A stretch of 57,914 nucleotides of DNA from a virus (lineage: Duplodnaviria > Caudoviricetes). Under the pieces are notes generated by a model. It had not been told where the DNA came from, made no database searches, and saw only the letters and a list, made by a program, of their open reading frames with translations. The stretch is taken from positions 1 to 57,914 of IMG/VR virus record IMGVR_UViG_3300010160_004367. One strand, given 5' to 3'. The number at the start of each line of letters is the position of its first letter. Position 1 is the first letter of the stretch. Shown here piece after piece: positions 37,114 to 57,914 of the stretch. Made by a program: the position numbers and the translations under genes.

Positions 37114-37119
37114 CACGGA

Positions 37120-37125: not shown

Positions 37126-37132
37126 AAAGACC

Positions 37133-37890: not shown

Positions 37891-37893
37891 ATA
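37886..37893 (+). promoter_or_regulatory. Perfect T4 late promoter TATAAATA before the tail fibre gene
   Basis: Exact T4 late consensus overlapping the upstream TAA, followed by AGGA Shine-Dalgarno and ATG 37915. Confidence 0.75.
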
Positions 37894-37914
37894 TAGCAAC
37901 CAGGAATAACTGAC

Positions 37915-40458: not shown

Positions 40459-40471
40459 TTAGGAACAAAAG

Positions 40472-41485: not shown

Positions 41486-41503
41486 TCGGTTAAATTTCTT
41501 TTG

Positions 41504-41528
41504 AAGAGGTAGACTTCTACCTCTTTTT
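41504..41528 (+). terminator. Rho-independent terminator ending the tail module
   Basis: AAGAGGTAG-actt-CTACCTCTT 9-bp stem-loop running into a T tract (41524-41528). Confidence 0.8.
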
Positions 41529-41538
41529 CATATACAAT
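41510..41538 (+). promoter_or_regulatory. Possible sigma70-type promoter for the glycosyltransferase/radical SAM operon, overlapping the terminator
   Basis: TAGACT (41510-41515), 17-nt spacer, TACAAT (41533-41538); ATG 41545 lies 7 nt downstream. Confidence 0.45.
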
Positions 41539-41544
41539 AATCCA

Positions 41545-41853
41545 ATGGATACTAAAAAACTTGTTGATCATGCACGAGCAAGGTTTGATCATGCGGCCGC
41601 ACGACGAGTGCTTAAAGAAAAATACCAAGCAAAAATGGTGTTTGCTCACGCTGGCGGAATGTGGCGTGCTGGACCAGACCTGCTGACCACACTGTTGAGT
41701 TGCGCACAAGACAAAGATGTTGTGATTTTGGACTTGTACGAAACTCCAATACGCATCAACGTAACTGAATTGTTTGCAAAAGCACACGAACGTTGGCAAG
41801 AACAAATGAACGCATGGCAGGTGGAATGGGAAAAAACCAATCAAAATCGTTGA
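41545..41853 (+). CDS. Hypothetical protein (possible tail-fibre assembly chaperone-like)
   Basis: 102-aa ORF, first gene after the terminator. Function inferred from position only. Confidence 0.6.
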   Translation: MDTKKLVDHARARFDHAAARRVLKEKYQAKMVFAHAGGMWRAGPDLLTTLLSCAQDKDVVILDLYETPIRINVTELFAKAHERWQEQMNAWQVEWEKTNQNR

Positions 41854-42656
41854 GCAAAGGCGCATTGATTTTTGCGTTCAACAATGAGCACATGGATTAC
41901 ATTGCCATGGCTGCATGGTCGGCTCGAAACATTCGAAAACACTTGAATCTGCCAGTGGCCATAGTAACTGACGATCCTGAGAAGGCCGCCAAATATGATT
42001 TTGATCACATTATCACATCCAAGCCAGACAGTGGCGGCACACGATACTTTGTTGACTACCAACAAACAGTCACTTGGTATAACGCTGGTCGAGCAACAGC
42101 ATATGAATTGTCACCTTTTGAACAAACACTGTTGTTGGATGCTGACTATGTGATAGCCAGCGACACACTGTTGCAAGTGATGGAAATGCCACAGCAATTT
42201 GTGGCGTTTGACCGCAGCCTTGATCCTGCTGAAGAATCCGAAGCTGATCCGATGTTGACCAAATTTGGCAACCCTCGCATGCCCATGTGGTGGGCCACAG
42301 TAATGATGTTTCGTCGTGGAAATCTCAGCCAATACGTTTTTGATTCCATGCAAATGGTTCGAGCAAATTGGCAACACTACAGACATTTGTTTAACATAGT
42401 AGAAGGAACATATCGCAATGACTATGCATTGAGTATTGCCCTGGGAATTTTAACCGGACATGAACAATCAGTGCATGCAATTCCTTGGCCCATGATCAAC
42501 GTCATGCCCAGTCAATCATTGAAAAAATTAGATGCTGATCAATATCAAATTGATTGGACTACCACTGACAATCGAGCAAGAAGCATAATGTTTGGTGGCG
42601 TGGATTTTCATGCCATGGGCAAAAAACATTTGGAGGATATAATTGCAGATAATTGA
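41850..42656 (+). CDS. GT-A fold glycosyltransferase-like protein
   Basis: GALIFAFN..DY..MA..SA..I, SPFEQTLLLDAD (DxD) and RNDYALSIA motifs. Start probably TTG 41850 (TTGA overlap) or ATG 41826. Confidence 0.7.
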   Translation: MSKGALIFAFNNEHMDYIAMAAWSARNIRKHLNLPVAIVTDDPEKAAKYDFDHIITSKPDSGGTRYFVDYQQTVTWYNAGRATAYELSPFEQTLLLDADYVIASDTLLQVMEMPQQFVAFDRSLDPAEESEADPMLTKFGNPRMPMWWATVMMFRRGNLSQYVFDSMQMVRANWQHYRHLFNIVEGTYRNDYALSIALGILTGHEQSVHAIPWPMINVMPSQSLKKLDADQYQIDWTTTDNRARSIMFGGVDFHAMGKKHLEDIIADN

Positions 42657-43413
42657 TGAACAAGGATATGTAATTGTTGCAGTAAACACCCACACAGTTG
42701 ATTATGTTGGGTGTGCCCAACGGTTGGCAGCGACCATAAAACACTGGGACCCGGGATCAAAGGTTTGTTTGATAACAGATCGAGAGCACTTAAATCCAGT
42801 GTTTGATCATGTGCGACTGTTGGCTCCACAAGACAATCCCTATGCCAATGATGCACAGCTATTTGCATTGACACCATTTCGTGAAACCATCAAGCTAGAA
42901 GCAGACATGTTGATTGTGTCGCCTATTGCACATTGGTGGGATCAATTTAGACACCGTGATGTTGTGATATCCACAGGATGTAACAATTGGCAAGATTCAG
43001 AAAGCAAATCAAGATATTATCGTCAGGTATTTGATTTCAACCGTTTACCAGATGTGTATAACGCAATTACCTATTGGCGACTGAGCCGCACAGCACAAGA
43101 ATTTTTTGAGTTGATTGGACAGATATTTGCCAATTGGGAAGAATTCAAACGACTGATCAAGTTTCCTGATCAAGTGCCATCTACTGATTTGGTTTATGCC
43201 ATGGCTGCTGAAATCATGGGGCGAGATCGTGTGACCATGCCATTCAGCACATATCCAAAAATCACACACATGAAAAGACTGCATGCCGGGACCACAACTG
43301 AACAATGGCCAGTTGAACTGGTATGGGAATACAGTGATTGGCGTTTGCGTATTCAAACCGTGGAACAAATTGGTGCATTTCATTATCATGTAAAAGACTG
43401 GAAAGCACAATGA
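42643..43413 (+). CDS. GT-A fold glycosyltransferase-like protein, paralog of the preceding gene
   Basis: GYVIVAVN..DY..CA..LA..I, TPFRETIKLEAD (ExD) and STDLVYAMA motifs; GGAGG Shine-Dalgarno before the TTG start. Confidence 0.7.
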   Translation: MQIIDEQGYVIVAVNTHTVDYVGCAQRLAATIKHWDPGSKVCLITDREHLNPVFDHVRLLAPQDNPYANDAQLFALTPFRETIKLEADMLIVSPIAHWWDQFRHRDVVISTGCNNWQDSESKSRYYRQVFDFNRLPDVYNAITYWRLSRTAQEFFELIGQIFANWEEFKRLIKFPDQVPSTDLVYAMAAEIMGRDRVTMPFSTYPKITHMKRLHAGTTTEQWPVELVWEYSDWRLRIQTVEQIGAFHYHVKDWKAQ

Positions 43414-44159
43414 CCAAACAATTCAAAATATTATTAATAGGTGATGACTGCAACGACATTTACACATACGGTCATGTAAAACGCATCAGCCCTGAAGCAC
43501 CTGTGCCCATATTTGAACCGGTTTATACCATTCATCATGATGGCATGGCAGGCAATGTTCGAAAGAATCTAGAAGCATTAGGATGTGCGGTTGATTTCCT
43601 AAGAGACAAAGACAGGGTCAGTGAAAAAAACAGACTGATTGACGAACGCACCAAACAACAATTACTGCGTGTGGACCGAGATGTTGAAGGCAAACCCATC
43701 ACATTTGAAACAGCAATACCTCCTGTATACGATGCGATAGTTATCAGCGACTACAACAAAGGCACAGTGACTTACAAACTCATAGAAGAACTGGTTCAAG
43801 AAGTCAATGTGCCTATCTTTGTTGACACAAAGAAAACAGACCTGGCAAGATTAACAGGTTGCTATGTCAAGATCAATGCATTAGAAAAAAGTCGCGCAAC
43901 AAGTTTACCTGACTCAGAGCATTTGATTGTCACTCACGGCAGCGATGGTGCAGAATGGAATGGTTGGGTATTTCCTGCTGAGATTGCAGGTGATGTTGTT
44001 GATGTATGCGGAGCAGGAGATACATTTTTAGCGGCTCTTGCATACAAATTTTTAGAGACTAATAAAATGAATGAAGCTGTTATATTTGCAAACAAGGCCT
44101 CAGCTGTCACAGTGCAACACATAGGTGTATATGCACCTCGCTTGGAGCAAATCAAATGA
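43410..44159 (+). CDS. PfkB-family sugar kinase, HldE/RfaE kinase-domain-like (heptose-7-phosphate kinase type)
   Basis: LLIGD, RISPEAPVP, GMAGNV..NL, SDYNKG and DVCGAGDTFLA motifs; start at ATG 43410 (ATGA overlap). Confidence 0.88.
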   Translation: MTKQFKILLIGDDCNDIYTYGHVKRISPEAPVPIFEPVYTIHHDGMAGNVRKNLEALGCAVDFLRDKDRVSEKNRLIDERTKQQLLRVDRDVEGKPITFETAIPPVYDAIVISDYNKGTVTYKLIEELVQEVNVPIFVDTKKTDLARLTGCYVKINALEKSRATSLPDSEHLIVTHGSDGAEWNGWVFPAEIAGDVVDVCGAGDTFLAALAYKFLETNKMNEAVIFANKASAVTVQHIGVYAPRLEQIK

Positions 44160-44515
44160 CAAGACTCAAAGGACATGTGGAAAAAGGCTGGGGCTCAGAA
44201 TTGATCTGGGCCAGCAATGATCGCTACTGCGGTAAAATGATGAACTTCAACACCGGTGCACGATTCAGCATGCACTTCCATCGCGAAAAAGAAGAAACTT
44301 GGTATGTGCAATCTGGCAAATTCATTGTGCGGTGGATTCTCACAGACACCGCAGAACAACGAGAACAAGAATTAATTAAGGGTGCAGTATGGCACAATCC
44401 TCCACTGTTTCCGCATCAACTGATTTGTGTGGAAGCAGGCACAGTATTGGAAGTGTCAACAGCAGACAGTGTGGAAGACAACTACCGCGTGTTGCCCGGA
44501 GACAGTCAAACATGA
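44156..44515 (+). CDS. Cupin-fold sugar isomerase-like protein (mannose-6-phosphate isomerase / D-lyxose isomerase type)
   Basis: KGWGSELIW, SMHFHREKEETWYV, PHQL and EVST motifs. Confidence 0.8.
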   Translation: MTRLKGHVEKGWGSELIWASNDRYCGKMMNFNTGARFSMHFHREKEETWYVQSGKFIVRWILTDTAEQREQELIKGAVWHNPPLFPHQLICVEAGTVLEVSTADSVEDNYRVLPGDSQT

Positions 44516-44847
44516 CACCCGACCAACTGCAACAACTGTTGCAGGCCATGCCTGCACCCAAACCAGTATTTTGGAGATTGTATTACAGTGACGACGGCAA
44601 ACCAATTCAATACACCATGGAAGACTTGCCAGGTACATACATTGACGTTGACCCAGTGACGTATTCTCGTGGCAACATGAATATTCGAGTAGTCAATGAA
44701 CAAATAGTAGAAGTATTTTTTAGAACAACCAAAAAACTGGTTCCTGGCAACTCTGGATCCCCTTGTCATCCTGACAATGTCGCTGTAATCGTTGCCGAGG
44801 ACCAACCTCATACCAAATGGAAACAAAAAACATATGAATCAAATTGA
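44512..44847 (+). CDS. Hypothetical protein
   Basis: 111 aa from ATG 44512 (GGAG upstream, ATGA overlap). Confidence 0.65.
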   Translation: MTPDQLQQLLQAMPAPKPVFWRLYYSDDGKPIQYTMEDLPGTYIDVDPVTYSRGNMNIRVVNEQIVEVFFRTTKKLVPGNSGSPCHPDNVAVIVAEDQPHTKWKQKTYESN

Positions 44848-45760
44848 TATTGCAGACCTAGACTGTGTATACTTGAGCTATGACGAACCTGAAAAAGAAG
44901 AGTTTTGGGTCCGTATCAAAAACATGGTGCCTTGGGCCACCCGAGTAGATGGTATTAAAGGCTCAGATGCAGCACACAAGGCCGCGGCCACAGCCAGCAC
45001 CACTGAACGCTTTATCTTGATCGACGGAGACAATATTCCTGATGCTGCTTTTTTCAATCAAACATTGACATTTGTCACACCTGACTGGGAACAAGCAGTG
45101 TTTCGTTGGCGTGCTAGAAATCACATCAATGGACTCATGTACGGCAATGGCGGCGTGAGTTCATGGACACGTGAGTTTGTGTTCAACATGCGCACACACG
45201 AAGCCACCGACGGGCGTGTGGAAACAGAAGTAGAGTTTTGTTTTGATCCCTTATACTGGGCCATGCACGACTGCTACTCAACCACATATCCCAATGGTTC
45301 AGCATTTCAAGCCTGGCGTGCTGGATTTCGTGAAGGTGTTAAAATGTGCTTGAACAAAGGTTCCAAGCCCACAGTGGAACAGTTTCAACAACAAGTGCAT
45401 CAACGCAACTTGGATCATTTGACCATATGGCACAACATTGGTGCAGATGTCAACAATGGACAGTGGGCCATGGCTGGTGCCAGACAAGGCACATACATGA
45501 CCATGCTCACAAACTGGGATCATAGACTGGTGCAAGACTTTGATGCACTAGCAGAAATCTGGGACACAGTCAAAGATTCAGATCCTAGATTGCTGGGTGG
45601 CCGCGTGGCCGATGACTTGTATAGCCAGTTGGACTTGCCAATGGCCATATTTGAAGGTGAGCAAAGCCGGTTTTTCAAACAGCACTACCGTAGCAACTGG
45701 TCCAACCGTGGCATCATGGTGCGAGAGATTGATGTTATCCGCCAACAAGAAGGCTGGTAA
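44834..45760 (+). CDS. GT-A fold glycosyltransferase-like protein
   Basis: VYLSYDEP, RVDGIKGSDAAHKAAA, FILIDGDN (DxD), NGLMYGNGG and AWRAGFREGVKM motifs; start at ATG 44834. Confidence 0.65.
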   Translation: MNQIDIADLDCVYLSYDEPEKEEFWVRIKNMVPWATRVDGIKGSDAAHKAAATASTTERFILIDGDNIPDAAFFNQTLTFVTPDWEQAVFRWRARNHINGLMYGNGGVSSWTREFVFNMRTHEATDGRVETEVEFCFDPLYWAMHDCYSTTYPNGSAFQAWRAGFREGVKMCLNKGSKPTVEQFQQQVHQRNLDHLTIWHNIGADVNNGQWAMAGARQGTYMTMLTNWDHRLVQDFDALAEIWDTVKDSDPRLLGGRVADDLYSQLDLPMAIFEGEQSRFFKQHYRSNWSNRGIMVREIDVIRQQEGW

Positions 45761-47157
45761 TGAACAAAGGTGATGAGTCAATAGACAACAAAAGCAAGTT
45801 CCTTGGTGCTGCTGAACAAATGAAACAGAAACTAGGACCTGCTCTTTGTCTGGCCAAGTGGAAGCAGGTTAGCCTACATCTCACCACCGGACTCAACAAC
45901 TCATGCTACCATCCTCCATTGCATGCTATTGATGCAGACGCAATAAAAGTAGATCCCAGGGCATTACACAATACTGCACACAAAAAAGCTCAACGTGTGA
46001 TGATGTTGCACAACGAAAAACCTGCTGAGTGCTCCTACTGCTGGAACATGGAAAATGAAGGCAAGCTCAGTGACCGACACTATCGATCAGGCGAGCCCTG
46101 GGCTGCCATAGATTTTGAATCAATAAAAAACTCAACAGGAGAAGAAAATGTTATCCCCAGTTATGTTGAAGTTAATTTCAACCATGCTTGTAATCTCAAG
46201 TGTAGTTATTGTAGCCCTCAGTTTTCAAGCTCTTGGCAGGACGAAGTTGCAAGGCTTGGCGCTTACCCTACTAGCAGTGCTCATAATGCTCCTGAGCATT
46301 TTGTGGGCCAACGACGCCCCATACCCACAAGAGAACACAATCCCTACGTTGACGCCTTCTGGTCTTGGTGGCCCGAACTCTATCCGCACCTAGAACATTT
46401 CCGCATGACTGGTGGTGAGCCACTGCTGGATCGGAATACCTATCGTGTGTTTGACTATGTGTTGGAGAATCCCAGTCCACGATTGCATTTGAATGTCACA
46501 AGCAATTTCTCAGTGGATGAGAAGTCATGGCAAAAATATCTAGACTATGTCAAACGCATCTGTGATGGACGCATAGAACACTTCATGCAGTATGTGAGCT
46601 TAGACGGCTGGGGTGCTCAAGCAGAATACATGCGGCATGGTCTAGACTTTGACTTGTTGTGGGACCGAGTAAATCAATTCCTTACTGAAGTTCCCAACTA
46701 CTCAAGCCTGACATTTATTATCACAATGAACAATCTCAGCGTGACTAGTTTGGACAAACTGTTTGCTGGCATACTAGGACTACGCAAGGTATACAGCAAC
46801 ACCTATCAGCGTGTGTGGTTTGACACACCTGTGTTGCGTGAACCTGCCTGGCAGAGTTTGCAAATACTTCCTGAAAGTTATGCAGATCGATTAGAATTGT
46901 TGTGGGCATGGATGATACGTCAAATTGAAACAGAAGAAGCACCGTTCCGAGGATTCAAAGACTACGAACTGCACAGACTGGATCGTGACATTGCTTGGAT
47001 GAGATCAGCACAGTTGAAAGATCACAGTCGTGCAAAAGCAGACTTCTATCGCTTCTTCAGCGAACATGACCGACGTCGTAGCACAGATTTTTTAGCAACA
47101 TTTCCTGAAATGAAGTCATGGTGGGAGGAGTGCGCATACCATGCTAGGCAATCGTAA
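45760..47157 (+). CDS. N-terminal twitch-domain radical SAM protein (array member 1)
   Basis: CLAKW..SCYHPP..ECSYCW; CNLKCSYC; TGGEPL; SLDG; EYMRHG; HDRRR..F..TFPE. Confidence 0.92.
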   Translation: MNKGDESIDNKSKFLGAAEQMKQKLGPALCLAKWKQVSLHLTTGLNNSCYHPPLHAIDADAIKVDPRALHNTAHKKAQRVMMLHNEKPAECSYCWNMENEGKLSDRHYRSGEPWAAIDFESIKNSTGEENVIPSYVEVNFNHACNLKCSYCSPQFSSSWQDEVARLGAYPTSSAHNAPEHFVGQRRPIPTREHNPYVDAFWSWWPELYPHLEHFRMTGGEPLLDRNTYRVFDYVLENPSPRLHLNVTSNFSVDEKSWQKYLDYVKRICDGRIEHFMQYVSLDGWGAQAEYMRHGLDFDLLWDRVNQFLTEVPNYSSLTFIITMNNLSVTSLDKLFAGILGLRKVYSNTYQRVWFDTPVLREPAWQSLQILPESYADRLELLWAWMIRQIETEEAPFRGFKDYELHRLDRDIAWMRSAQLKDHSRAKADFYRFFSEHDRRRSTDFLATFPEMKSWWEECAYHARQS

Positions 47158-48265
47158 AATCATTGTAGACACCTGGGCCGAAGTATGGGACCTGCTTGAG
47201 CCGTATGCGGATGGAAATTTTTGGCAATGGCCTGAACAACTGGAACCTGATGCTGTTTACATTGTAGGCCGCGTGGTATTCAACGACAACTGGAAAGCCA
47301 TAACAGATTGGGCAACACAACATCCAGGCAATGTTGTGTTTTCCAATCCTGCCGAAGGCAGTCAAACCATGTGGACTCAACTTCAACGATTGAGAATCAT
47401 GAACCATGTGCAAGATGGACGTATTGGATTGTTGGCATCTGGTGACCTAGAACCTGGCTATAACTATTGCAAAACAGATTGTTATTTTTCTCATATTGTA
47501 GAATATTTAGAAAATTTACGTGCGCACGAATTTTATTCGCAGGTATATCACAAAACACGCAAGCCTTATGACTTCTTATTCCTTAATGGTCGGTTGCGTC
47601 CACATCGCAAATATCTAATAGATACCATGCGTGATCGAAAGTTGTTGGATCGAGCACTGTGGACCAATTTGCAAAATCAAGTGGACATGAGGTGGTCAAG
47701 TCAGCTGCCAACCCAAGACTTAGAACCAATAAGACTATTGCCGCCTGAGTATGAAATTGAACCAGCAAGATCAAATTTAGAATTGGTTGGACCAAACACT
47801 GGATTTGTCAAGTATCAATTGTTCAACAATATTCAAGAAGGATGCACCTGGGGAGATGCGGTTATCAATCCTGCTGCCTATATTGACACTTATTTTAGTG
47901 TGGTTTCAGAAACCATATTTGACTATCCTTATACATTTCGCACAGAAAAGATTTGGAAACCCATGATCATGGGCCACCCATTTGTGGCAGCGGCCAATCG
48001 CGGTTTCTACAGAGATTTACACTCGGCAGGATTTGAAACATTTGGTAATCTGATTGATGAGAGTTTTGATCTAATAGATGATCCTCGAGATCGTGCTGAT
48101 AGAATCGTTGACGTTGTGGCAGATATATGTTATAATGGTGCTGCTGAGTTTTTGGCAGCTGCCAAGGCAGTTTGTAAGCATAACTATCAACAACTTCGTG
48201 AACACAATCGTCGTGAACGTGCAGAACTGCCCAATCGTCTGGCTCAATACATCAACAATATATGA
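47141..48265 (+). CDS. Hypothetical protein with a GT10/GT-B-like C-terminal motif
   Basis: FLFLNGRLRPHR and YFSVVSET...RTEKIWKPM...GFETF..IDESFD resemble the fucosyltransferase-like F..EN...TEK motif. Confidence 0.55.
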   Translation: MLGNRKIIVDTWAEVWDLLEPYADGNFWQWPEQLEPDAVYIVGRVVFNDNWKAITDWATQHPGNVVFSNPAEGSQTMWTQLQRLRIMNHVQDGRIGLLASGDLEPGYNYCKTDCYFSHIVEYLENLRAHEFYSQVYHKTRKPYDFLFLNGRLRPHRKYLIDTMRDRKLLDRALWTNLQNQVDMRWSSQLPTQDLEPIRLLPPEYEIEPARSNLELVGPNTGFVKYQLFNNIQEGCTWGDAVINPAAYIDTYFSVVSETIFDYPYTFRTEKIWKPMIMGHPFVAAANRGFYRDLHSAGFETFGNLIDESFDLIDDPRDRADRIVDVVADICYNGAAEFLAAAKAVCKHNYQQLREHNRRERAELPNRLAQYINNI

Positions 48266-49389
48266 ATGCTCATTATTGCATTTTACCTTTTATTCATTTA
48301 CACATAAATGAAAAAGATCAAGTCAAGTTGTGCTGTTATTCAACTGCATTAACACAATACAATGCTGAGTTTGATTATGTAACCAATGAACATTATCAAC
48401 AAGTAAGAAGTCAGCTTCGGCAAGGCTTACCAGTAAGGCAATGCGAATCTTGCTACAAGATAGAACAAGCCGGCGGTGAAAGTTTTAGAATAAGAGACAC
48501 CGCAGAGTGGCAACAAAAATTAAAAATTCAAGATTTAGATACGTTTGAACCTCAACTGATCTATTATGACATACGCAATGACAACACTTGCAACTTGAGT
48601 TGTCGTATATGTCATCCTGGTGCAAGCAGTCAATTGGAAAAAGAATACAAAAAACTAAACTGGCCTATCAAACCGTCTTCAAGAAAACACAAACTAACCA
48701 AAATTGTTGATTTAGATACCATACAGCAATTACAGATTGCTGGTGGAGAGCCAACAATCATGCCTGAATTTAAAGAATTTTTAGAAAATGCCATTGCCCA
48801 AAATCGAACTGATATTGCATTAAAAATTATAACAAATGCTACCAACGTTAACTTGTCTTATCAAACTCTGTTAAATGCATTCTCTGACAAAGAATTCATA
48901 GTCAGCATAGACGGCTATGATTTAATCAATCGGTATATACGATGGCCGAGTGATTGGGAAACATTGATCACAAACATACACAGGTTGTATGAAATAACTG
49001 ACCGTGTGTCATTCAATGTCACAGTAAGCATGTGGAACGTTGGCAATCTAAGCAAACTGATTTTGTTTTTAGAAAAAGAATTCAACAACCCTTTGATATT
49101 TTTAAATGAAGCTGTGCCAAATGGCAGAGCAAACATAAGCCCATTTAATCGGCCAGACCAGGACATTGTGCTTGCTGACTTAGAAAAATTAAAAAATTGT
49201 GCATCGTATCAACTCGAAGATCATTTCAAAAACAAAGTGGATTACTTTTTATCAAAAATGAAAACTCGTACAGTTGACCTAAACTCGTTGAGAAAATTCT
49301 TTGATTACAATGATCAGTTGGATCAATCTCGAAATGTAAAACTGGAAGACTTTGTTCCCGAATTATATGCATGCAAGAGTTATCTGTAA
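48262..49389 (+). CDS. N-terminal twitch-domain radical SAM protein (array member 2, AT-rich)
   Basis: CILPF..LCC..QCESC; CNLSCRIC; AGGEP; SIDG; YIRWP; LDQSR....FVPEL. Confidence 0.92.
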   Translation: MNAHYCILPFIHLHINEKDQVKLCCYSTALTQYNAEFDYVTNEHYQQVRSQLRQGLPVRQCESCYKIEQAGGESFRIRDTAEWQQKLKIQDLDTFEPQLIYYDIRNDNTCNLSCRICHPGASSQLEKEYKKLNWPIKPSSRKHKLTKIVDLDTIQQLQIAGGEPTIMPEFKEFLENAIAQNRTDIALKIITNATNVNLSYQTLLNAFSDKEFIVSIDGYDLINRYIRWPSDWETLITNIHRLYEITDRVSFNVTVSMWNVGNLSKLILFLEKEFNNPLIFLNEAVPNGRANISPFNRPDQDIVLADLEKLKNCASYQLEDHFKNKVDYFLSKMKTRTVDLNSLRKFFDYNDQLDQSRNVKLEDFVPELYACKSYL

Positions 49390-49392
49390 ATA
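49387..49392 (+). promoter_or_regulatory. Possible late promoter box TAAATA inside the radical SAM array
   Basis: Lies in the only non-overlapping junction of the array, just before ATG 49402, and overlaps the upstream TAA stop. Confidence 0.4.
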
Positions 49393-49401
49393 CAATCCCT
49401 T

Positions 49402-50739: not shown

Positions 50740-52142
50740 CTTTCCCTGCTGATCTTTCCAAAATAAAAGTATGGAAAGAGCAAACACTCGACAGCAAGAG
50801 CAAAAGTTTTTGTGGAGCAAAATGGTATCATTCTAGCATGTGGCTGTGGAGAGGATGGACAGCCAGCTGCCATCACAATCCTCCACATCAAATTGATCAA
50901 GCGGAAATTGCACAAACTCCCAGTGCATTGCACAATACATCGAAAAAAATCAATGAACGTGCAATGATGCAACGTGGCGAAAAACCCTTGGATTGCCAAT
51001 ATTGCTGGGCAATAGAAAACATCGATTCAGACATGTTAGCAGACAGAGTTTGGTATAGCAAAAGTATGTCAAGCAAAAGTTTGCAGGTGGCATTTGAAAA
51101 TTCACCTGAAACTCATGTGAATCCAACATATCTTGAGTTGGGGTTTGACAGCACATGTAATCTGGCATGCAGTTATTGTTGTCCTGACATCAGCAGTTCT
51201 TGGATGCGCGATATCAAACAAAATGGTGTGTATCAAAATATCATCACTGATGAACGTGAACATTATACTCGTGCTGGCAGTGTTGGGGACAACTACAGCT
51301 ACGGTGAAGAAAATCCCTATGCTGATGCATTTTTTAAATGGTGGGAAACAGATCTGCACCTCTCATTGAGGAACATACATATCACTGGCGGCGAGCCGTT
51401 GATGAGTGGACATTTTTGGAAATTTTTAGATTGGTTGGAACAGAACCCCAACAAAAGTCGTGCATCTATATCCATACAAACAAACTTGGCCTACGATTCA
51501 GACATGTTGAATAGATTCCTTGACAAGATCTCAACAATAAGAACGGGTTTTGCAATTTCCACTAGTATGGAATCCACAGGATCAAAAGCAGAATATGTTA
51601 GAGATGGTGTGAACTGGGAACAATGGTGTAAAAATATAAACATATTAACCAAGAACAAACGCATAAACCGTGTGGAGATTTTCTCCACAATGAGTGCAGT
51701 ATCATTAAACGGGTTTGTGGAATTTTTAACTTGGTTAGTAGAACAAAAGAAACAGATGGGCAAATCTTATTTTGATCTGTATATAAGTTATGTGAGATGG
51801 CCTACTTTTCAAAATGTAATGGTGCTGCCTGCAGAAATAAAAAAACAATACAGCAATGAGTTGCAATATTTTGTTGACAACAATCAACAATGGTTTTCGA
51901 CCAAAGAAATAAATTTTATAAACAGACTGATATCATATCTTGTCGACGTGCAATCTCCGCATAGTGGAAGCATAGTATCAGACGGAACATTAAATTTTGT
52001 TGATCAGCAATTTGCTCACAACACTTTATCAATGCAAAAAGATTTTAAAAGTTTTTTCTCTCAGTATGATCAGCGCAGAAATAAAAAATTTACTGCAACG
52101 TTTCCTAACCTAGAAGAATGGTATGACTCAATACAAGTATAA
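50736..52142 (+). CDS. N-terminal twitch-domain radical SAM protein (array member 4, AT-rich, close paralog of member 3)
   Basis: CGAKW..SCHHNPP..DCQYCW; CNLACSYC; TGGEPLMSG; EYVRDG; YDQRR..F..TFPNL. Confidence 0.92.
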   Translation: MTFPADLSKIKVWKEQTLDSKSKSFCGAKWYHSSMWLWRGWTASCHHNPPHQIDQAEIAQTPSALHNTSKKINERAMMQRGEKPLDCQYCWAIENIDSDMLADRVWYSKSMSSKSLQVAFENSPETHVNPTYLELGFDSTCNLACSYCCPDISSSWMRDIKQNGVYQNIITDEREHYTRAGSVGDNYSYGEENPYADAFFKWWETDLHLSLRNIHITGGEPLMSGHFWKFLDWLEQNPNKSRASISIQTNLAYDSDMLNRFLDKISTIRTGFAISTSMESTGSKAEYVRDGVNWEQWCKNINILTKNKRINRVEIFSTMSAVSLNGFVEFLTWLVEQKKQMGKSYFDLYISYVRWPTFQNVMVLPAEIKKQYSNELQYFVDNNQQWFSTKEINFINRLISYLVDVQSPHSGSIVSDGTLNFVDQQFAHNTLSMQKDFKSFFSQYDQRRNKKFTATFPNLEEWYDSIQV

Positions 52143-53406
52143 CAGCAGTGATCTGGTGCGTCCCACAGAACTCACAGACCGTGAGCAATTTTTGTTGACT
52201 GAATCAAAAACATTTTGCATATATCCTTGGATACACTTGCATGCCTATCCCACAGGTGAAGCATATCCTTGTTGCCATGCTGAGATGGGTGTGGGACAAG
52301 TTGGTAATTGTCGTATCCAGCCGTTGGAAGAAATTTGGAACAATACCAAGCAACGACAGTTACGCATGGACATGCTGACCGAAACAGACAACTCCACTTG
52401 CGGTCGCTGTTACGAGCAAGAGAAATCAGGATTCTTCTCAGGACGTCAAAGCGCCAACAAGCATCATGGGCATCATGTTGCTCGGGTGCATAACACTGAA
52501 GACAACGGCCACTTGGAACAATTTGAAATGACCTACTGGGATATTCGTTTCTCAAACTTGTGCAATTTAAAATGTCGCAGTTGCGGGCATATCTTTTCAA
52601 GCCAATGGTATCAAGACCAAGCCAAGCTGGCAGGTGGCGACTGGAAGGATCGCAACACTGTGTTGAACTATGCAGGACGCACTGAAACGGATATGTGGGA
52701 ACAATTAGAACCGCACTTGGATTACGTGGAGCAAATTTACTTTGCTGGCGGCGAACCCTTGCTGATGGAAGAACACTATCGTATTTTGGAAGAACTTGTT
52801 CGACGCAAAATGTTCCATGTGCGATTGATTTACAACACAAACTTCACGCACACTGAACTCAAGGGCAAGAGTGTATTTGAATACTGGAAACTGTTTGACA
52901 GCGTGGCAGTGGGTGCAAGTTTGGATGCTTCCGGTGTGCGAGGAGAATATATTCGCAAAGGCACTGACTGGGCTGTGGTAGAACACAACCGTGTTGAAAT
53001 GCTGAAAATTTGTCCAGGCGTTGATTTTTACATTAGTCCTACCTTGAGTATTCTCAACGCACGCCACTTGCCTGAGTTTCATCGCAACTGGGTAGAACGC
53101 GGATTAATTCGACCACAGGACTTGAATGTAAATATATTACAAGATCCTGCACATTATAGAATTGATATTGCTACCAAAGAATACAAAGAAGAATTAAGCA
53201 CAAGGTATTTGAATCACATCATGTGGTTGCGTGATCAAGATCCACTGGGTCGCGCCACACAAGGGTTTGAATCAGCAATAACTTTTATGAACACCACAGA
53301 CAACACTCACTTGATAGATACGTTTTGGCGTAAAACACACGAGCTAGATAATATTAGACGAGAAAGCATTATGGATGTGATTCCAGAACTGGCAGCATTA
53401 AAATGA
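52123..53406 (+). CDS. N-terminal twitch-domain radical SAM protein (array member 5)
   Basis: CIYPW..PCC..TCGRC; CNLKCRSC; AGGEPL; YNTN; SLD; EYIRKG; LDNIR....VIPEL. Confidence 0.92.
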   Translation: MTQYKYNSSDLVRPTELTDREQFLLTESKTFCIYPWIHLHAYPTGEAYPCCHAEMGVGQVGNCRIQPLEEIWNNTKQRQLRMDMLTETDNSTCGRCYEQEKSGFFSGRQSANKHHGHHVARVHNTEDNGHLEQFEMTYWDIRFSNLCNLKCRSCGHIFSSQWYQDQAKLAGGDWKDRNTVLNYAGRTETDMWEQLEPHLDYVEQIYFAGGEPLLMEEHYRILEELVRRKMFHVRLIYNTNFTHTELKGKSVFEYWKLFDSVAVGASLDASGVRGEYIRKGTDWAVVEHNRVEMLKICPGVDFYISPTLSILNARHLPEFHRNWVERGLIRPQDLNVNILQDPAHYRIDIATKEYKEELSTRYLNHIMWLRDQDPLGRATQGFESAITFMNTTDNTHLIDTFWRKTHELDNIRRESIMDVIPELAALK

Positions 53407-54617
53407 ACATACCACACGATAAGTTTTGCGTGTTACCCTGGATTAGTATTGAAGCCTCGCCTGTTGGAACAGTGCGTCCTTGTTGCCTTGCTGACAACGA
53501 AATTGTAGACGATTCGGGCCGCAAATTTGAGTTGAGCACAGCCAACTTTGCTGATATACAAAACTCAAATCACATGCGCAGCCTGCGTGAACAGTTTCTT
53601 GCAGGTGAGCGCCCACAAACTTGTCGCAAGTGCTGGAATGAAGAACGTGGCGGTCGCACCAGCAAGCGTATGCACACACTAGACAGACTCAAACACACAA
53701 TCACAGACACAGAGTGGACCGCAGACGCCAAGCACTTGATGTTTTTGGATCTAAAACTGGGAAATATCTGCAATTTGAAATGCCGCATTTGTGGCTCATG
53801 GTCGAGCAGTCAATTTGCTTCAGAAGAAATCAGTTACTTGCCGCGAGAACAACAAAAATCAAGTCATGCATATCAAATGCTACGTGCAGGTGCCTGGCCC
53901 AGAGAGAACACTCAATTCTGGCAGCAGATTGACAGTGTGCTAACAGACATTCGCTATATTGAATTCACTGGTGGCGAACCGTTCATGATTGACGAACACT
54001 TTGACATGTTGCAGGGCATTGTTGATCGTGGCATCGCACACCAAGTTGAAATACACTACAACACCAATGGCACACAGTATCCTGAACGTGGTGAGGCAAT
54101 TTGGCGGCATTTCAAAACTGTTGAGATTGCATTCAGTATTGATGACATTGGAGAGAGATTTGAATATCAACGTAGCAACGCCAATTGGTCGGGGGTCTGC
54201 GCAAACCTAGATCGTTTTAGAGATCTCAAAGAATGTCACAAGAATATAGTGCTACAAATTTGCACCACAGTAAACGTATTCAATGTGCGTTACTTAGATC
54301 AAGTTGCCCAATGGATTGATCTGAACAAAGAAAGTTTTAATTTTGTATACTGGAACATGATGCACGATGCATGGTATTTCAGTATTGCCACACTGCCAGA
54401 CACTGCCAAAGCAGCCATAACACAACATCTACGTTCAGCAGATGTTCCGCCACAGTATCGTGGAGAATTTGATCGCATTGTGGATTTTATGAACACTGGT
54501 GCAAGTTCAGACGGTGCCATCTTGCGTATGAAGGTTGCAGATTTAGATCGCAAACGCAATCAAAATTTGCGTGATATAGAACCTGAATTTGCTGAGCTAA
54601 TCAATTATGAATCTTAA
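53403..54617 (+). CDS. N-terminal twitch-domain radical SAM protein (array member 6)
   Basis: CVLPW..PCC..TCRKCW; CNLKCRIC; TGGEPF; YNTNG; SID; LDRKR....IEPEF. Confidence 0.92.
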   Translation: MNIPHDKFCVLPWISIEASPVGTVRPCCLADNEIVDDSGRKFELSTANFADIQNSNHMRSLREQFLAGERPQTCRKCWNEERGGRTSKRMHTLDRLKHTITDTEWTADAKHLMFLDLKLGNICNLKCRICGSWSSSQFASEEISYLPREQQKSSHAYQMLRAGAWPRENTQFWQQIDSVLTDIRYIEFTGGEPFMIDEHFDMLQGIVDRGIAHQVEIHYNTNGTQYPERGEAIWRHFKTVEIAFSIDDIGERFEYQRSNANWSGVCANLDRFRDLKECHKNIVLQICTTVNVFNVRYLDQVAQWIDLNKESFNFVYWNMMHDAWYFSIATLPDTAKAAITQHLRSADVPPQYRGEFDRIVDFMNTGASSDGAILRMKVADLDRKRNQNLRDIEPEFAELINYES

Positions 54618-56001
54618 ATTATATTTTGGCAAAGAAGACTATGACAATTTAGCAGGGCCTGATTGGCCCAGTTACGAGTCTATCTGTGCTGGCGTGACAG
54701 CAAAAGATCCTGAAATACAAAAAGAGATAGACGGGTATTTAGATATGTTTCGCAAGGATGGTATCAAGTTTCCTATCAACACTGCCACAGCATGTCAAAG
54801 TAAATGGACCTGGAGCACAATTTATTTAAATCAGCTATCCACCGCCAGTTGTCACAGAGTGCAACCTCTACCATTTGAACTAGAAAATTTTGACAATTTT
54901 CATAACATACCAAAAAAATTACAAGATCGTCAACTGATGTTGGAAGGAAAATGGCCCAAGGGAGGCTGCGAATATTGTCAGGTAATAGAAGAAGCTGGCG
55001 GCCACAGTGATCGTCAACACAACTTGGAAATACGCGGATTGACTCCTCCAGAGGTAGAACTAGACCCCACTGCTGTTAATGTAAGCCCTCGCATAGTAGA
55101 AATATTTGCGCAGAACACTTGCAACTTGTCATGCATTTATTGCAATGGTAATTTGAGCAGTCAAATCGAAAGAGAAAATATCAAACACGGAAATTTCAAT
55201 TCAAATGGAGTTAGAATTCCAATAATCACAACTCCTACTCAAGCTGCAAAAGAATACTTTGATCGCTTTATTTCTTGGCTGGACCGTAATGTAAACACTT
55301 TGAATAGACTGCACTTGCTGGGTGGCGAAACATTTATACAACACGAATTAATGACTGCTGTGTTGGGCATACTAGAAAAGAATCCCAACCCTGACTTGCA
55401 GTTTTGTATTTTCAGTAACTTGAATGTTCCTGACAGTGCATGGGATAGATATGTTCCTCGCATATTGGATTTACAAAAACGTGGTTATATAAAATACTTC
55501 GATTTGACAGCCAGCATTGATTGCTGGGGACCTGAACAAGAATATGTTCGTTCAGGATTGAATTTAGAAAAGTTCGAAAAACGTTTTGCATGGGCAGCCG
55601 ATCAAGACCCAACTCGGTTGAGATTGAATGTGAATCAAACAGTGACTGGGATGACAATAAAAACCATGCCAGGACTGATTGAAAAAATCAAACAATACAG
55701 CAAGCACAGACACATTGGGCATTATTTTCAATTCTATACTGGAACACACATGTTTCAACATCCCAATGTGTTTGCCTACAGCATGTGGGAAAAAGATTTT
55801 AAAAATATACTTGCAGTCATGCCAACTGATACCATAGAACAGCAAGAAGCCATACCTCGCATGATTGGACTGCAACGATATCTTCAACAAAGGGTTGACC
55901 ATAATCACAGTGAAATTAAAAAATTGCATGTGTATCTAGATGAGCTTGATCGCCGCCGCGGCACTGATTGGAACAAATTGTTTGGATATTTAAAAGTATG
56001 A
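54607..56001 (+). CDS. N-terminal twitch-domain radical SAM protein (array member 7) with an extra N-terminal GPDWP module
   Basis: CQSKW..SCHR..GCEYC; CNLSCIYC; LGGET; SID; EYVRSG; LDRRR. Confidence 0.9.
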   Translation: MNLKLYFGKEDYDNLAGPDWPSYESICAGVTAKDPEIQKEIDGYLDMFRKDGIKFPINTATACQSKWTWSTIYLNQLSTASCHRVQPLPFELENFDNFHNIPKKLQDRQLMLEGKWPKGGCEYCQVIEEAGGHSDRQHNLEIRGLTPPEVELDPTAVNVSPRIVEIFAQNTCNLSCIYCNGNLSSQIERENIKHGNFNSNGVRIPIITTPTQAAKEYFDRFISWLDRNVNTLNRLHLLGGETFIQHELMTAVLGILEKNPNPDLQFCIFSNLNVPDSAWDRYVPRILDLQKRGYIKYFDLTASIDCWGPEQEYVRSGLNLEKFEKRFAWAADQDPTRLRLNVNQTVTGMTIKTMPGLIEKIKQYSKHRHIGHYFQFYTGTHMFQHPNVFAYSMWEKDFKNILAVMPTDTIEQQEAIPRMIGLQRYLQQRVDHNHSEIKKLHVYLDELDRRRGTDWNKLFGYLKV

Positions 56002-57275
56002 GTCTATGCATGGCGCCCTGGGTGCATACCTATCTAAGTCCGCAAACAGAACGACGTATGTGTTGTGCGTCAAGAGAACCTGCGCAGAACTTTGAGCAAT
56101 ACATAGACACAGCCGCAGGCACTGGTCAATACATTCCTATCACACTGGATGAGCACTGGAACTCACCGCACATGATGAGTGTGCGCAGTAGAATGATGGC
56201 TGGCGAAACACTCCCCGAGTGTGAAGTATGCAATGACAAACTGTTGAACACAGACGTTTACCGCACATATTTTTGGCATTTGTTCAAACATAAGTATCCT
56301 GACATCTGGGAAACTACCGACACAGCAGGCCGCACCACAATGCAGCCTGTGAGTTGGGATTATAGATTCAGTAACCTGTGCAATTTCAAATGTCGTATGT
56401 GCGGTGACATGCTGAGCTCAAGTTGGGAAACAGAGCAGAAGCAACACAACATGGTTGACTGGTCGAATTCCAAGAACACCTGGATGCGGCCTGAGGTGCG
56501 TCGAGAGATTTCAGCATTCCAAGACAGTCAAATAGAGGCTGAGTTTGCTGAGGCAGTGGAACAGCATCGTGTTGAAGAAGTATACTGGGTAGGTGGCGAG
56601 CCCCTGATGTACGAACAACATTGGCGTTATATGAAGCGCATAGTTGAATTAGGGGATGGGCCAAGAGTATATGCTAGATACAATACAAATTTATCCAGAG
56701 TGGATTATCGAGGTGTTAATCTATATTGCAATATTCTTAGTGGGCTACGTGATTGGCAGATATGTGCGAGTCTCGACGGCACAGGCGCAATTGGTGAATA
56801 CATTAGAACAGGCCTTGAGTATGATCAGTGGCTTGACAATTTTGGTCAAGCAGTTGCGATCCAACGTCACAGACGTCAAGTACGAATTGACTTTACGCTC
56901 ACTCTGCCCGGAATGTTCGAAGTTACACGTATTAGACAACTTGCCCAAGAGTTCAGAGTCGACGTCCTTGCTAAAGTAATATTCTCATTCTCACCAGACA
57001 TCATAATGAGTCCACTGGCATTGCCAAAATCTTTGTTAGACGCCTGGGTTGATGAATTGGTGCCAGAAGTGAACGGTGCTCTACGTGATGTATTGTTGCA
57101 ATTAAAACAACGACCCACATTTGAACAGCAATGGCCAGATCAATATCGTGCAGGCCTTGCAAAGGGCAAGGCACGTGTGTTACAATTAGAAAGCATACGC
57201 ACACAGAAGATCACAATGGCAGAAATACTAGCTGATCGTCCTGCAGTGCTAGAATGGTGGAACAACATTGCTTGA
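55998..57275 (+). CDS. N-terminal twitch-domain radical SAM protein (array member 8)
   Basis: Start at ATG 55998 (ATGA overlap); CMAPW..MCC..ECEVC; CNFKCRMC; VGGEPL; YNTN; SLDG; EYIRTG. Confidence 0.92.
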   Translation: MSLCMAPWVHTYLSPQTERRMCCASREPAQNFEQYIDTAAGTGQYIPITLDEHWNSPHMMSVRSRMMAGETLPECEVCNDKLLNTDVYRTYFWHLFKHKYPDIWETTDTAGRTTMQPVSWDYRFSNLCNFKCRMCGDMLSSSWETEQKQHNMVDWSNSKNTWMRPEVRREISAFQDSQIEAEFAEAVEQHRVEEVYWVGGEPLMYEQHWRYMKRIVELGDGPRVYARYNTNLSRVDYRGVNLYCNILSGLRDWQICASLDGTGAIGEYIRTGLEYDQWLDNFGQAVAIQRHRRQVRIDFTLTLPGMFEVTRIRQLAQEFRVDVLAKVIFSFSPDIIMSPLALPKSLLDAWVDELVPEVNGALRDVLLQLKQRPTFEQQWPDQYRAGLAKGKARVLQLESIRTQKITMAEILADRPAVLEWWNNIA

Positions 57276-57914
57276 TAGAATTGAAATAGACCTGCGTGGC
57301 GCAGACACACTCACACTGCACATTGATGTAGCAGACAACAGCCTAAGTCGTAAATGGCTCACAGCTTTGAACAATATCATACGCAGTGATTTACACTTGG
57401 AAAAGAACTACTGCTGGTTGGGCTGGACTGAAAGTGAACGCAATGCTGAATATATCATCAACCAAATCAACAACAGTATTCAAGTAATCAACTCAGCCAA
57501 CTTGGGCTACACAATTGATGATCATTTCACCGTGGCAGAAACCATACAAGACAACTTGGATGTTGACCATGAGCGCATGAATTGGTTACATCGTTACTTT
57601 GAAGATTTGCAAGGACATTCAGGACACATGAGTGCTTATTGGAGTCAAGCTGATGCCGCCACACGTTGGCACATACGTCAACTCAATCTGCTGTGTCACG
57701 AATATGAAAGCCTTGTGCTCAGCATGCGCAAGGTGCTACAAGCACCCGAATGGCGTAGACCCAGTCAGCTGATGTGCTGGCTCAACGCACCAAGATTTGC
57801 ATTAGACACAGAGGACTATGAACTGTTTGGGATAGACACAATCAACCGACAAATGGGCGGAGTGTATGTGGGTGTAAACAAGGCAGTAAGCAAAGCACAC
57901 TGGGAAGTGTTCAA
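57268..57914 (+). CDS. Hypothetical protein, truncated by the right window edge
   Basis: Not in the ORF track. Open frame from TTG 57268: MLDRIEIDLRG...RKWL...HLEKNYCWLG...MNWLHRYFEDLQG...RQLNLLCHEYE; no stop before the end. Confidence 0.75.
   Translation, partial: MLDRIEIDLRGADTLTLHIDVADNSLSRKWLTALNNIIRSDLHLEKNYCWLGWTESERNAEYIINQINNSIQVINSANLGYTIDDHFTVAETIQDNLDVDHERMNWLHRYFEDLQGHSGHMSAYWSQADAATRWHIRQLNLLCHEYESLVLSMRKVLQAPEWRRPSQLMCWLNAPRFALDTEDYELFGIDTINRQMGGVYVGVNKAVSKAHWEVF

Follow-up and report, generated by a model that had tools for sequence, protein, structure and literature searches.

We report an island of overlapping genes in a virus record of IMG/VR (IMGVR_UViG_3300010160_004367), the whole of which (57,914 bp, linear ends) was analysed and is referred to below as the window. 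From 41545 to the end of the contig, behind baseplate and fibre genes, the + strand encodes eight radical S-adenosylmethionine (SAM) proteins of the N_Twi_rSAM family and a set of transferase-like proteins. Comparison with related loci established that five radical SAM genes, two putatively GT8-like paralogs (g1 and g2), a gene called 'a' and the genes '1', '2' and '3' form a fixed skeleton behind fibre genes, and that the radical SAM genes 48262, 50736 and 54607 (named by their start positions, like other genes below) are accessory. With moderate confidence, we propose that the island specifies a soluble, cytoplasmic pathway that would assemble a sugar-based structure and edit it by oxygen-independent radical chemistry. 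The proposal is drawn from membership of the family NF033640, its invariant cysteines, a GT-B-fold protein, a kinase resembling heptose kinases, nucleoside diphosphate (NDP)-sugar enzymes in the islands of relatives, domain fusions and the conserved skeleton.

A scan of viral contigs seeded with 47141-48265 returned 39 close loci at 56-78% identity, several of them cut by contig ends. The island genes are given below with the number of these loci that hold an orthologous open reading frame (ORF). For radical SAM genes, bit scores refer to NCBIfam NF033640 (N_Twi_rSAM, twitch domain-containing radical SAM protein; curated cut-off 170 bits) and clade supports to a tree of 151 representatives.

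41545-41853, + strand: gene '1', 102 amino acids; 37 loci
41793-42656, + strand: gene 'g1', candidate GT8/GT77-like (GT-A) transferase, a lead only; likely start near 41826; 37 loci
42643-43413, + strand: gene 'g2', paralog of g1 (about 21% identity, alignment A3); 44.8 bits to phrog_1903, a function-unknown family; 37 loci
43338-44159, + strand: sugar kinase of the PfkB family (63 bits, cut-off 25.8), accessory; likely start 43416; 5 loci
44156-44515, + strand: small cupin, accessory; Cupin_1 23.6 bits (cut-off 22), phrog_7851 141 bits; 5 loci
44389-44847, + strand: gene '2', about 112 amino acids; likely start 44509; 35 loci
44792-45760, + strand: gene 'a' (family 'a'), candidate transferase and best-conserved island protein; Rossmann-like N-terminus, D-G-D motif; 38 loci
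45760-47157, + strand: N_Twi_rSAM, subfamily II, core; 313 bits; clade support 0.99, representatives from 26 loci; 39 loci
47141-48265, + strand: predicted GT-B-fold transferase ('GT10-like'), from an AlphaFold2 (AF2) model and Foldseek; 39 loci
48262-49389, + strand: N_Twi_rSAM, subfamily I, accessory; 244 bits; 0 loci
49402-50739, + strand: N_Twi_rSAM, subfamily II, core; 297 bits; clade support 0.95, representatives from 21 loci; 35 loci
50736-52142, + strand: N_Twi_rSAM, subfamily II, accessory; 282 bits; 0 loci
52123-53406, + strand: N_Twi_rSAM, subfamily I, core; 391 bits; clade support 1.0, representatives from 28 loci; 33 loci
53403-54617, + strand: N_Twi_rSAM, subfamily I, core; 338 bits; clade support 0.98, representatives from 24 loci; 33 loci
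54607-56001, + strand: N_Twi_rSAM, subfamily II, accessory; 190 bits; 4 loci
55968-57275, + strand: N_Twi_rSAM, subfamily I, core; 272 bits; clade support 1.0, representatives from 23 loci; 32 loci
57268-57914, + strand: gene '3', last island gene, cut by the contig end (about 341 amino acids in relatives); 31 loci

All long ORFs from 41545 to the contig end lie on the + strand, with overlaps of 1-34 nt at the junctions and a single intergenic gap of 12 nt (49390-49401). A first-pass annotation of this DNA, made from the sequence alone, had described a phage context and a run of about 16 kb of overlapping genes behind the tail module, and both descriptions are confirmed by this layout and by the baseplate and fibre genes upstream.

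Of the ten ORFs scanned from 45760 onward, eight matched NF033640 across almost its full length, at 190-391 bits, and 47141-48265 and 57268-57912 gave no match. Thus the first-pass annotation was correct in counting eight CxxxCxxC radical SAM proteins in the island and in assigning them to the family N_Twi_rSAM, all eight scoring above the cut-off. Its claim of an N-terminal twitch domain also proved right: Pfam placed SPASM ahead of Radical_SAM in 52123 (SPASM at residues 32-97), in 53403 (residues 9-78) and in a ninth family member outside the island, 5503-6999 (residues 129-191 before 228-401). In an alignment of the nine paralogs, four N-terminal cysteines (C32, C51, C93 and C96 of 52123) were invariant in all nine proteins, as were C147, C151 and C154 (CxxxCxxC) and G209, G210 and E211 (GGE). 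With four cysteines, the N-terminal domain has ligands for one auxiliary cluster, which points to a twitch and not to a full SPASM domain. Pairwise identity among the nine is 17-40%, and they fall into subfamily I (52123, 53403, 55968, 48262 and 5503) and subfamily II (45760, 49402, 50736 and 54607). In the tree, the five core genes of the window fall into five separate clades, which have supports of 0.95-1.0 and draw on 21-28 loci each, and the three accessory genes into small clades of 3-4 loci. The array therefore consists of old, distinct enzymes and did not arise by recent amplification. Among the accessory genes, 50736 is 40% identical to 49402 and forms a clade with three other loci, and 48262 has one viral relative (50% identity).

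Thirty of the close loci hold both ends of the island. Their order is 1-g-g-2-a-[variable]-R-B-R-R-R-[variable]-R-3 (R, radical SAM; B, GT-B), and the skeleton was kept in 30/30, each with at least five radical SAM genes and at least four glycosyltransferase (GT)-like genes. Radical SAM genes number five in 21 of these islands, six in seven and seven in two, and are exceeded in all cases by the eight of the window; transferase-like genes number 4-8. The eight had been presented as one set, a view that does not survive, since three of them (48262, 50736 and 54607) are accessory. In a second scan, seeded with 50736, we obtained 42 more distant loci in which the motif f-1-g-g-(2)-a-R...-3 persists. 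All 15 complete islands among them contain g, g and 'a' with 5-8 radical SAM genes; in 9 of these 15, as in the close relatives, the GT-B gene stands behind the first radical SAM gene of the array. Fibre-gene orthologs stand ahead of the island in close relatives (40472 has orthologous ORFs in 35 of the 39 loci), a 40472-like gene lies immediately 5' of gene '1' in 21/21 distant loci with a flank long enough, and placement behind fibre genes is kept among relatives whose proteins are merely 25-60% identical.

A chimera at about 41500 had been named beforehand as grounds for refutation. It is excluded by the same gene order in relatives and by contigs from other runs that bridge the junction between fibre genes and island (X1 record 1 and X2 record 18, 0 mismatches each; X7 record 26, from another study, 26 mismatches). 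Independent contigs also bridge 47141-49289 and 49930-52550 (50736 via X2 record 23), so 48262 and 50736, which have no orthologs in the 39 close loci, are real. One joint among the X1/X2 contigs skips 1439 bases (window 50678-52118), almost exactly 50736-52142, which weakly suggests co-occurring strains without this gene, the shorter side of the joint being only 27 letters long.

Ten proteins from the variable slots and islands of relatives were scanned against Pfam; four gave clear matches and five gave none (full-length gene '3' included). The slots encode a CTP_transf_like nucleotidyltransferase (E 1.2e-15), two enzymes of the NAD-epimerase/GDP-mannose-dehydratase type (E 1e-42 to 1e-50) and an AMP-binding enzyme, and gave a weak ADI-fold (amidinotransferase-fold) match below the cut-off. 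Domain fusions involve the same proteins. The profile of family 'a' covers 1535 representative clusters, and 15 of the 150 representatives listed are 715-809 amino acids long with 'a' at the C-terminus. In the four long proteins scanned, and in one fragment, Glyco_tran_28_C and EryCIII-like_C precede 'a', with UDPGT in three of the five; one 'a' fusion (WP_329776821.1, from Agarivorans aestuarii) bears the NCBI name glycosyltransferase. A fusion search seeded with 52123, and therefore biased towards fusions containing a 52123-like domain, yielded 103 longer homologs. Seven of these are fusions of an N-terminal 'a' domain to N_Twi_rSAM, and 79 are double N_Twi_rSAMs, 69 of which have a 52123-like domain followed by a 53403-like one, as in the window. 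New in this analysis are the fusions of 'a' to GT1/GT28-type glycosyltransferases and to N_Twi_rSAM, the 52123-53403 fusions and the NDP-sugar enzymes in the slots of relatives. The slot enzymes and the fusions of 'a' lend independent support to the earlier suggestion of a glycan-building pathway, in which the kinase and the cupin are accessory. The three kinds of fusion also show which proteins belong together for co-expression, and this makes the question testable.

The 47141-48265 protein had been called GT10-like. Its AF2 model, based on 16 sequences, has a pLDDT (predicted local distance difference test) of 88.6, and the leading Foldseek matches in PDB are all GT-B glycosyltransferases: the mango GT10 fucosyltransferase FucT13 came first (E 1.3e-3, template modelling (TM) score only 0.32), followed by SenB, WaaG, EXT1/2 and T4 beta-glucosyltransferase (rank 30), with the Helicobacter pylori fucosyltransferase at rank 44. 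In a viral fold library, it matched many uncultured-phage proteins and giant-virus glycosyltransferases. E257, T268, E269 and K270 are invariant in the family (a T-E-K motif), an arrangement that we take to resemble the C-terminal E...TEK nucleotide-sugar motif of GT10. A Pfam scan of all 16 members, however, gave nothing relevant and no Glyco_transf_10 match at E up to 1, and the family has no PDB sequence match. Membership of GT10 was rejected for lack of a Glyco_transf_10 match, and the protein was filed as a GT-B-fold transferase; of the earlier label, the fold is retained, with a plant GT10 enzyme as the first match, and the sequence family is not.

GT-A-like labels had been given to 41793, 42643 and 44792. 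Hidden Markov model (HMM) searches did not support them; what remains is a language-model lead, a low-confidence model and the domain fusions. For g1 and g2, no Pfam, NCBIfam or PDB match was found, and a Pfam scan of every member of A3 gave nothing relevant. The Pfam-labelled clusters nearest to g1 in the Atlas language model are Nucleotid_trans, Glyco_transf_8 and Mannosyl_trans3 (score 0.95), and L115, A117 and D118 are invariant in A3, the A-D pair lying at the expected strand end. We treat GT8-like (GT-A) transferases as a lead only for this pair. Family 'a' (alignment A1, mean column identity 84%) gave no Pfam or PDB match, a deeper alignment included. The AF2 model of 'a' has a pLDDT of 48.9 and is confident only at residues 17-95; employing this poor model, Foldseek reached at best a non-significant E of 0.02, many of the top-ranked matches being GT-A glycosyltransferases or nucleotidyltransferases. 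No relation between 'a' and g was detected with hhalign. That 'a' is fused to GT-B domains speaks for a role of this candidate transferase in glycan chemistry, not for a GT-A fold.

The kinase had been described as HldE-type. Its closest solved relative is the heptose 7-phosphate kinase 4e84 (E 3e-16), and it scored 127.6 bits against rfaE_dom_I (TIGR02198), below the equivalog cut-off of 345. The protein belongs to the PfkB kinases and comes closest to those acting on heptose 7-phosphate, as proposed; it fails the threshold for an equivalog of HldE domain I/HldA, and a substrate could be assigned by likeness only. The cupin is real, marginal in Pfam and clear in phrog_7851. Both proteins had been counted as integral parts of the pathway, and this was not borne out by their presence in 5 of the 39 close loci. 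In relatives they belong to a cassette of four genes, for a cytidylyltransferase-like nucleotidyltransferase, the kinase, the cupin and a 105-amino-acid 'phosphoheptose isomerase'-like protein. All four are found in L013 and L047 (L013:5515-5994, L047:6133-6450), the only loci in which the isomerase-like gene was matched; L015 and L022 also keep the nucleotidyltransferase, which is thus present in four of the five cassette relatives. A 52-amino-acid trace of it (43323-43478) remains in the window. The kinase and cupin genes here are the rump of a mobile four-gene cassette that also occurs in T4-like cyanophages.

Genes '1' and '2' showed no Pfam, NCBIfam or PHROG match. Gene '1' aligns (A7) as a globular protein that is neither repetitive nor precursor-like, and gene '2' (A8) also aligns as a globular protein. 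Gene '3' gave no Pfam match with a full-length ortholog and no PDB match with its profile (A5).

In the pathway that we propose, an acceptor would receive activated sugars from the g1, g2, 'a' and GT-B proteins. Each radical SAM orthogroup would cleave SAM to a 5'-deoxyadenosyl radical and abstract hydrogen at a different position of the sugar, and the N-terminal auxiliary cluster would accept or donate the electron, as it does in dehydrogenases, epimerases or dehydratases of the BtrN type. The products of 52123 and 53403 may act as one unit, and the accessory radical SAM enzymes, extra GT-B paralogs and NDP-sugar cassettes could vary the product between strains. No membrane-like segment was predicted in any island protein. 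We rank the candidate acceptors in the order phage structural (fibre) protein, free glycoside, host envelope glycan, DNA. A virion protein is favoured because of the fixed position behind fibre genes and the fusions to tetratricopeptide (TPR) repeats, and a free glycoside because of the GT1-type fusions and oxygenase-rich cellular clusters; a host-envelope target is less likely since the pathway has no membrane steps, and DNA is less likely since the island lies in the structural module. A further, rather doubtful step would be that at least five distinct radical enzymes, fused to or associated with 'a', rewrite a protein-linked glycan on giant-phage tail fibres without oxygen, and that the extra enzymes diversify the fibre surface for host recognition or defence evasion. 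If this were true, it would be the first viral glycan tailored by radical SAM enzymes and the first function for N_Twi_rSAM.

Several observations weigh against sugar tailoring. N_Twi_rSAM is catalogued without an assigned function, no member of the family has been assayed, and SAM cleavage by the island proteins is a prediction. Among PDB sequences, the array came closest to 8vpo (E 8.7e-11, core only), a peptide-modifying radical SAM-SPASM enzyme; sugar enzymes ranked far lower (BlsE 7vob, E 1.5e-4; a 7wzv chain, E 7.5e-4), with viperin, anSME (4k37) and YydG (8ai3) between 8vpo and BlsE, and SkfB 6efn also among the matches. According to the two papers that cite the entry, 8vpo is a cyclopropyl synthase of ribosomally synthesised and post-translationally modified peptides (PMC10878394). 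TPR repeats, found in 9 of the 103 longer 52123 homologs, suggest a protein partner. Three of the four transferase labels have no significant HMM or fold match, a GT-B gene is missing from 6 of the 15 distant islands that are complete, and the window has neither the full nucleotidyltransferase nor the isomerase-like gene of the kinase cassette. A link between radical SAM and glycosyltransferase copy numbers, as anticipated in the first-pass annotation, holds for the core set, which was co-inherited in 30/30 complete close islands, and not for accessory copies, which gave a negative correlation (Spearman rho -0.41, p 0.026, 30 complete close islands, relatedness uncorrected); extra slots are filled by a radical SAM or a transferase gene, one or the other. 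The cultured Ralstonia phage RsoM2USA (L129, 344 kb) has a solo N_Twi_rSAM gene (12974-14356, 53% identical to 49402) flanked by unannotated proteins of about 280 amino acids, with none of g, 'a', GT-B, 1, 2 and 3 nearby. Furthermore, 83% of the genome lies outside the record.

Bacterial neighbourhoods are likewise open to other readings. Among 401 sampled Bacteroidota genomes, four have N_Twi_rSAM proteins above the cut-off, one of them via phage contigs. The three chromosomal clusters (L121-L126; G084, G156 and G288) show pairs or quartets of N_Twi_rSAM genes beside rows of proteins of about 300 amino acids. Five of ten such neighbours scanned were 2-oxoglutarate (2OG) oxygenases, four of the PhyH type and one of the WelO5 type; the clusters also hold a fusion of GT2 with a methyltransferase and gave weak matches to GT11 and GDSL. 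A PhyH/WelO5 neighbourhood also fits natural-product or lipid tailoring, which counts against our proposal. Some Bacteroidota chromosomes contain ORFs of 508-548 amino acids that include the N_Twi_rSAM family.

The island might make a natural product, namely a free glycoside with heavy tailoring like that of aminoglycosides or nucleosides, which acts on the host or on competitors and is not attached to the virion. To our knowledge, every twitch radical SAM enzyme so far characterised as acting on sugars (BtrN, SpeY, BlsE and others) belongs to a natural-product pathway of this type. The EryCIII-like/UDPGT domains fused to 'a' are GT1-type domains typical of small-molecule glycosylation, and the AMP-binding enzyme and weak amidinotransferase-fold match in relatives, as well as the cellular clusters in which N_Twi_rSAM is paired with PhyH and WelO5 halogenase-like oxygenases, point in the same direction. 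A cyanophage cluster with glycosyltransferases, a radical SAM and an amidinotransferase has been read as 'antibiotic synthesis genes' (PMC12801897). However, no exporter or resistance gene was found in the island by Pfam/NCBIfam and membrane-segment scans, and the position behind fibre genes, conserved among relatives with 25-60% protein identity, also speaks against a free product. We consider a free glycoside unlikely.

Direct modification of a protein or peptide by the radical SAM enzymes (cross-links, epimerisation, oxidation), in a fibre or in a small island protein and with the transferase-like proteins secondary, has a slim chance. The best solved relatives of the array named above (8vpo, anSME, YydG and SkfB) modify peptides or proteins, and the TPR repeats and the fixed position behind fibre genes would suit this explanation. 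In contrast, Pfam/NCBIfam scans of the island proteins revealed no RRE-type domain, and no precursor-like peptide gene was found in the island (the record covers about 17% of the genome); the '1' and '2' proteins look globular, and there is scarcely any intergenic room. Nor does direct modification explain the NDP-sugar enzymes within the islands of relatives or the fusion of 'a' to glycosyltransferases.

Remodelling of a host envelope glycan (lipopolysaccharide (LPS) or capsule), for instance against superinfection or against adsorption of progeny to debris, is quite improbable. It would give a role to a kinase of the heptose (LPS core) type, and related cyanophage cassettes are interpreted as host cell-surface modification in the cyanophage literature (PMC12801897); yet island scans found no membrane protein, flippase, polymerase or ligase, and the kinase cassette is accessory (5/39 close loci). 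Hypermodification of phage DNA with sugars, followed by radical editing, is highly improbable: some phages are known to glycosylate their DNA with glycosyltransferases of their own, an SbcC/SbcD operon includes one N_Twi_rSAM gene and T4 beta-glucosyltransferase is among the fold matches of 47141 (rank 30), but the island lies in the structural module, away from nucleotide-metabolism genes, and no hydroxymethylase or base-modifying gene was seen in scans of the window.

Features on the left of the tail module are as follows.

3-635, - strand: fragment of a short-chain dehydrogenase/reductase (SDR), from Pfam
572-1720, - strand: unrelated radical SAM protein (Pfam 37 bits; only 26.8 bits to NF033640, below the cut-off)
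5503-6999, - strand: ninth N_Twi_rSAM, 302 bits, with an N-terminal extension of about 125 amino acids

The first-pass annotation had noted two further radical SAM proteins and an SDR here, as was found, and the window thus encodes ten radical SAM proteins. No PDB sequence relative was detected for 572-1720. The 5503-6999 gene overlaps an SbcC-like gene (3425-5506) and an SbcD-like gene (6996-8012) by 4 nt on each side, is translationally coupled between these recombination nuclease genes and is the sister of the 53403 clade (support 0.984). In large relatives, N_Twi_rSAM copies over the cut-off also occur outside the island, on the opposite strand.

The features immediately ahead of the island, those of the spacer being predictions from inspection of the sequence, are given below.

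37282-37890, 37915-40458 and 40472-41485, + strand: fibre-like structural genes (phrog_11259 and phrog_22593 matches)
41503-41529, + strand: terminator-like hairpin followed by a T run, predicted function
41531-41539, + strand: TATACAATA, promoter-like motif 5 nt ahead of the first ATG, predicted function

Most of 28 distinct upstream sequences of relatives keep a AAAGGGGC..GCCCCTTTACTTTT-type hairpin and a TGTAYAATR-type motif. We infer that the hairpin and TATACAATA mark the island as a separate transcription unit. The structural genes of the window are preceded by ATAAATA, unlike the island with its TGTAYAATR, and a 236-kb relative has the same two motif classes. ATAAATA occurs at 17851, 18258, 37119 and 37887 on the + strand, each copy within 30 nt 5' of an ATG (three precede structural-gene starts; the fourth, at 37119, precedes a small unlisted frame), and zero times on the - strand of the window; in the 236-kb relative, there are 21 copies, of which 12 have a gene start no more than 45 nt away. 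It looks like a T4-type late promoter. Early-looking genes in the same relative have TTGAC/TATAAT and AGGAG. The TGTAYAATR motif may be an extended -10 element (early) or a variant of the late promoter; because it can be read in two ways, adjacency to fibre genes is no proof of late expression.

The phage itself can be placed by its baseplate wedge protein (18284-21745), which scored 923 bits against phrog_10646 and is 33-35% identical to its counterparts in Sinorhizobium phage Phosso, Agrobacterium phage Atu_ph07, Salicola phage SCTP-2 and PBECO4-like coliphages. On these grounds, the record is part of the genome, about 340 kb in size, of a giant myovirus similar to Rak2/Atu_ph07; CheckV estimated its completeness at 17%. 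Near relatives are found as single contigs of up to 236 kb, and in a search with the g-family profile, contigs of 347-361 kb were found to hold the same protein family. That profile alone matched 6940 metagenome proteins, all of them unannotated. Listed matches to the stretch 40400-50399 comprise 20 DNA runs on freshwater or other aquatic samples (13 studies) and no RNA run.

Two island contigs, L052 (183 kb) and L053 (148 kb), were the only contigs returned by a scan of genome-assembly contigs, and both are filed in one metagenome-assembled genome of Haliscomenobacter sp. They were rejected as a cellular homolog or host call, since the whole phage island is aboard; the filing probably arose as an artefact of binning and offers no more than a faint clue to the host. 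Within the baseplate/fibre module of the window, a single + strand ORF (21745-37113) encodes 5122 amino acids. It contains no long tandem DNA repeat, the sole array in 21745-41485 being at 39478-39684, in the next fibre gene.

If sugar tailoring is correct, the island would give the first functional context to a large uncharacterised family of radical SAM proteins, and would point to oxygen-independent sugar chemistry of a kind not known from viruses. For a virus, ten iron-sulfur enzymes within 58 kb are a heavy investment, and the island is abundant in freshwater metagenomes, as the number of g-family proteins and of studies indicates.

A literature search by family name found no study of N_Twi_rSAM, the matches concerning other twitch enzymes, and no paper was found that joins radical SAM, jumbo phage and glycosyltransferase; an amoC-phage preprint and a 'moraphage' paper were set aside, as they do not concern the island. 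The earlier statement that such a phage pathway has no characterised example therefore holds, although an eight-gene set has been noted in print: the structural cluster of the cultured Aeromonas phage 332-Vera (PQ474292) includes eight radical SAM genes, which are called 'highly unusual' and were left unstudied (PMC12390700). The likeness is one of gene count and position only, and the same source places 332-Vera in Chimalliviridae, another lineage (PMC12390700). The cultured Vibrio phage K566 (L128) encodes four distant N-twitch-like radical SAM proteins (13980-20716; 98-134 bits to the family profile), interleaved with unknown proteins in an accessory region that does not adjoin tail genes.

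Compared with NF033640 as catalogued, nine window proteins exceed the cut-off and share the order of an N-terminal Fe-S domain followed by CxxxCxxC; the difference is that the family occurs here as 8+1 phage paralogs of ancient divergence. BtrN, SpeY and BlsE, which we take to be sugar-acting twitch radical SAM enzymes, resemble the array in having a radical SAM core, one four-cysteine auxiliary 4Fe-4S domain and a sugar-pathway context, and the cores of the array proteins and BlsE 7vob are weakly similar. N_Twi_rSAM proteins have the inverse domain order, and the similarity is restricted to the core and weaker than that to 8vpo. Moreover, in antibiotic pathways these enzymes act singly, whereas the islands have sets of five to eight.

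If the acceptor is a virion protein, the nearest precedent is virion glycosylation in mycobacteriophages, whose glycosyltransferases, according to work attributed to Freeman and co-workers in 2023, reportedly decorate capsid and tail-tube proteins; no radical SAM enzyme is said to be involved. Cyanophage S-SCSM2R, set beside the island by its description, also carries an uncharacterised mix of phage-encoded glycosyltransferases and radical SAM: its cluster comprises glycosyltransferases, an AHBA_syn-type aminotransferase, a radical SAM 'maturase' and an amidinotransferase, read there as cell-wall or antibiotic genes (PMC12801897). It differs in having one radical SAM gene and no array (PMC12801897).

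The T4-like cyanophages P-SSM2 and S-SSM7 share genes with the window itself. Their kinase is orthologous (41-42% identity; 36-45% across 37 records, as 'carbohydrate kinase'), their cupin, annotated as 'cysteine dioxygenase', is 33% identical to that of the window, and their nucleotidyltransferase and isomerase-like genes show 42-48% identity to those of L013 and L047. Only 2 of the 29 window ORFs match the cyanophage cassette, which contains 2OG-Fe(II) oxygenases, carbamoyltransferases, a halogenase and an NDP-sugar epimerase and is without N_Twi_rSAM. In both cases the genes stand behind tail-fibre genes, with 2OG-Fe(II) oxygenases taking the place of radical SAM proteins in the cyanophages, a point that we count in favour of sugar tailoring. 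If that reading is right, the cyanophage 2OG-oxygenase cassettes at this position would be a counterpart of the radical SAM island described here.

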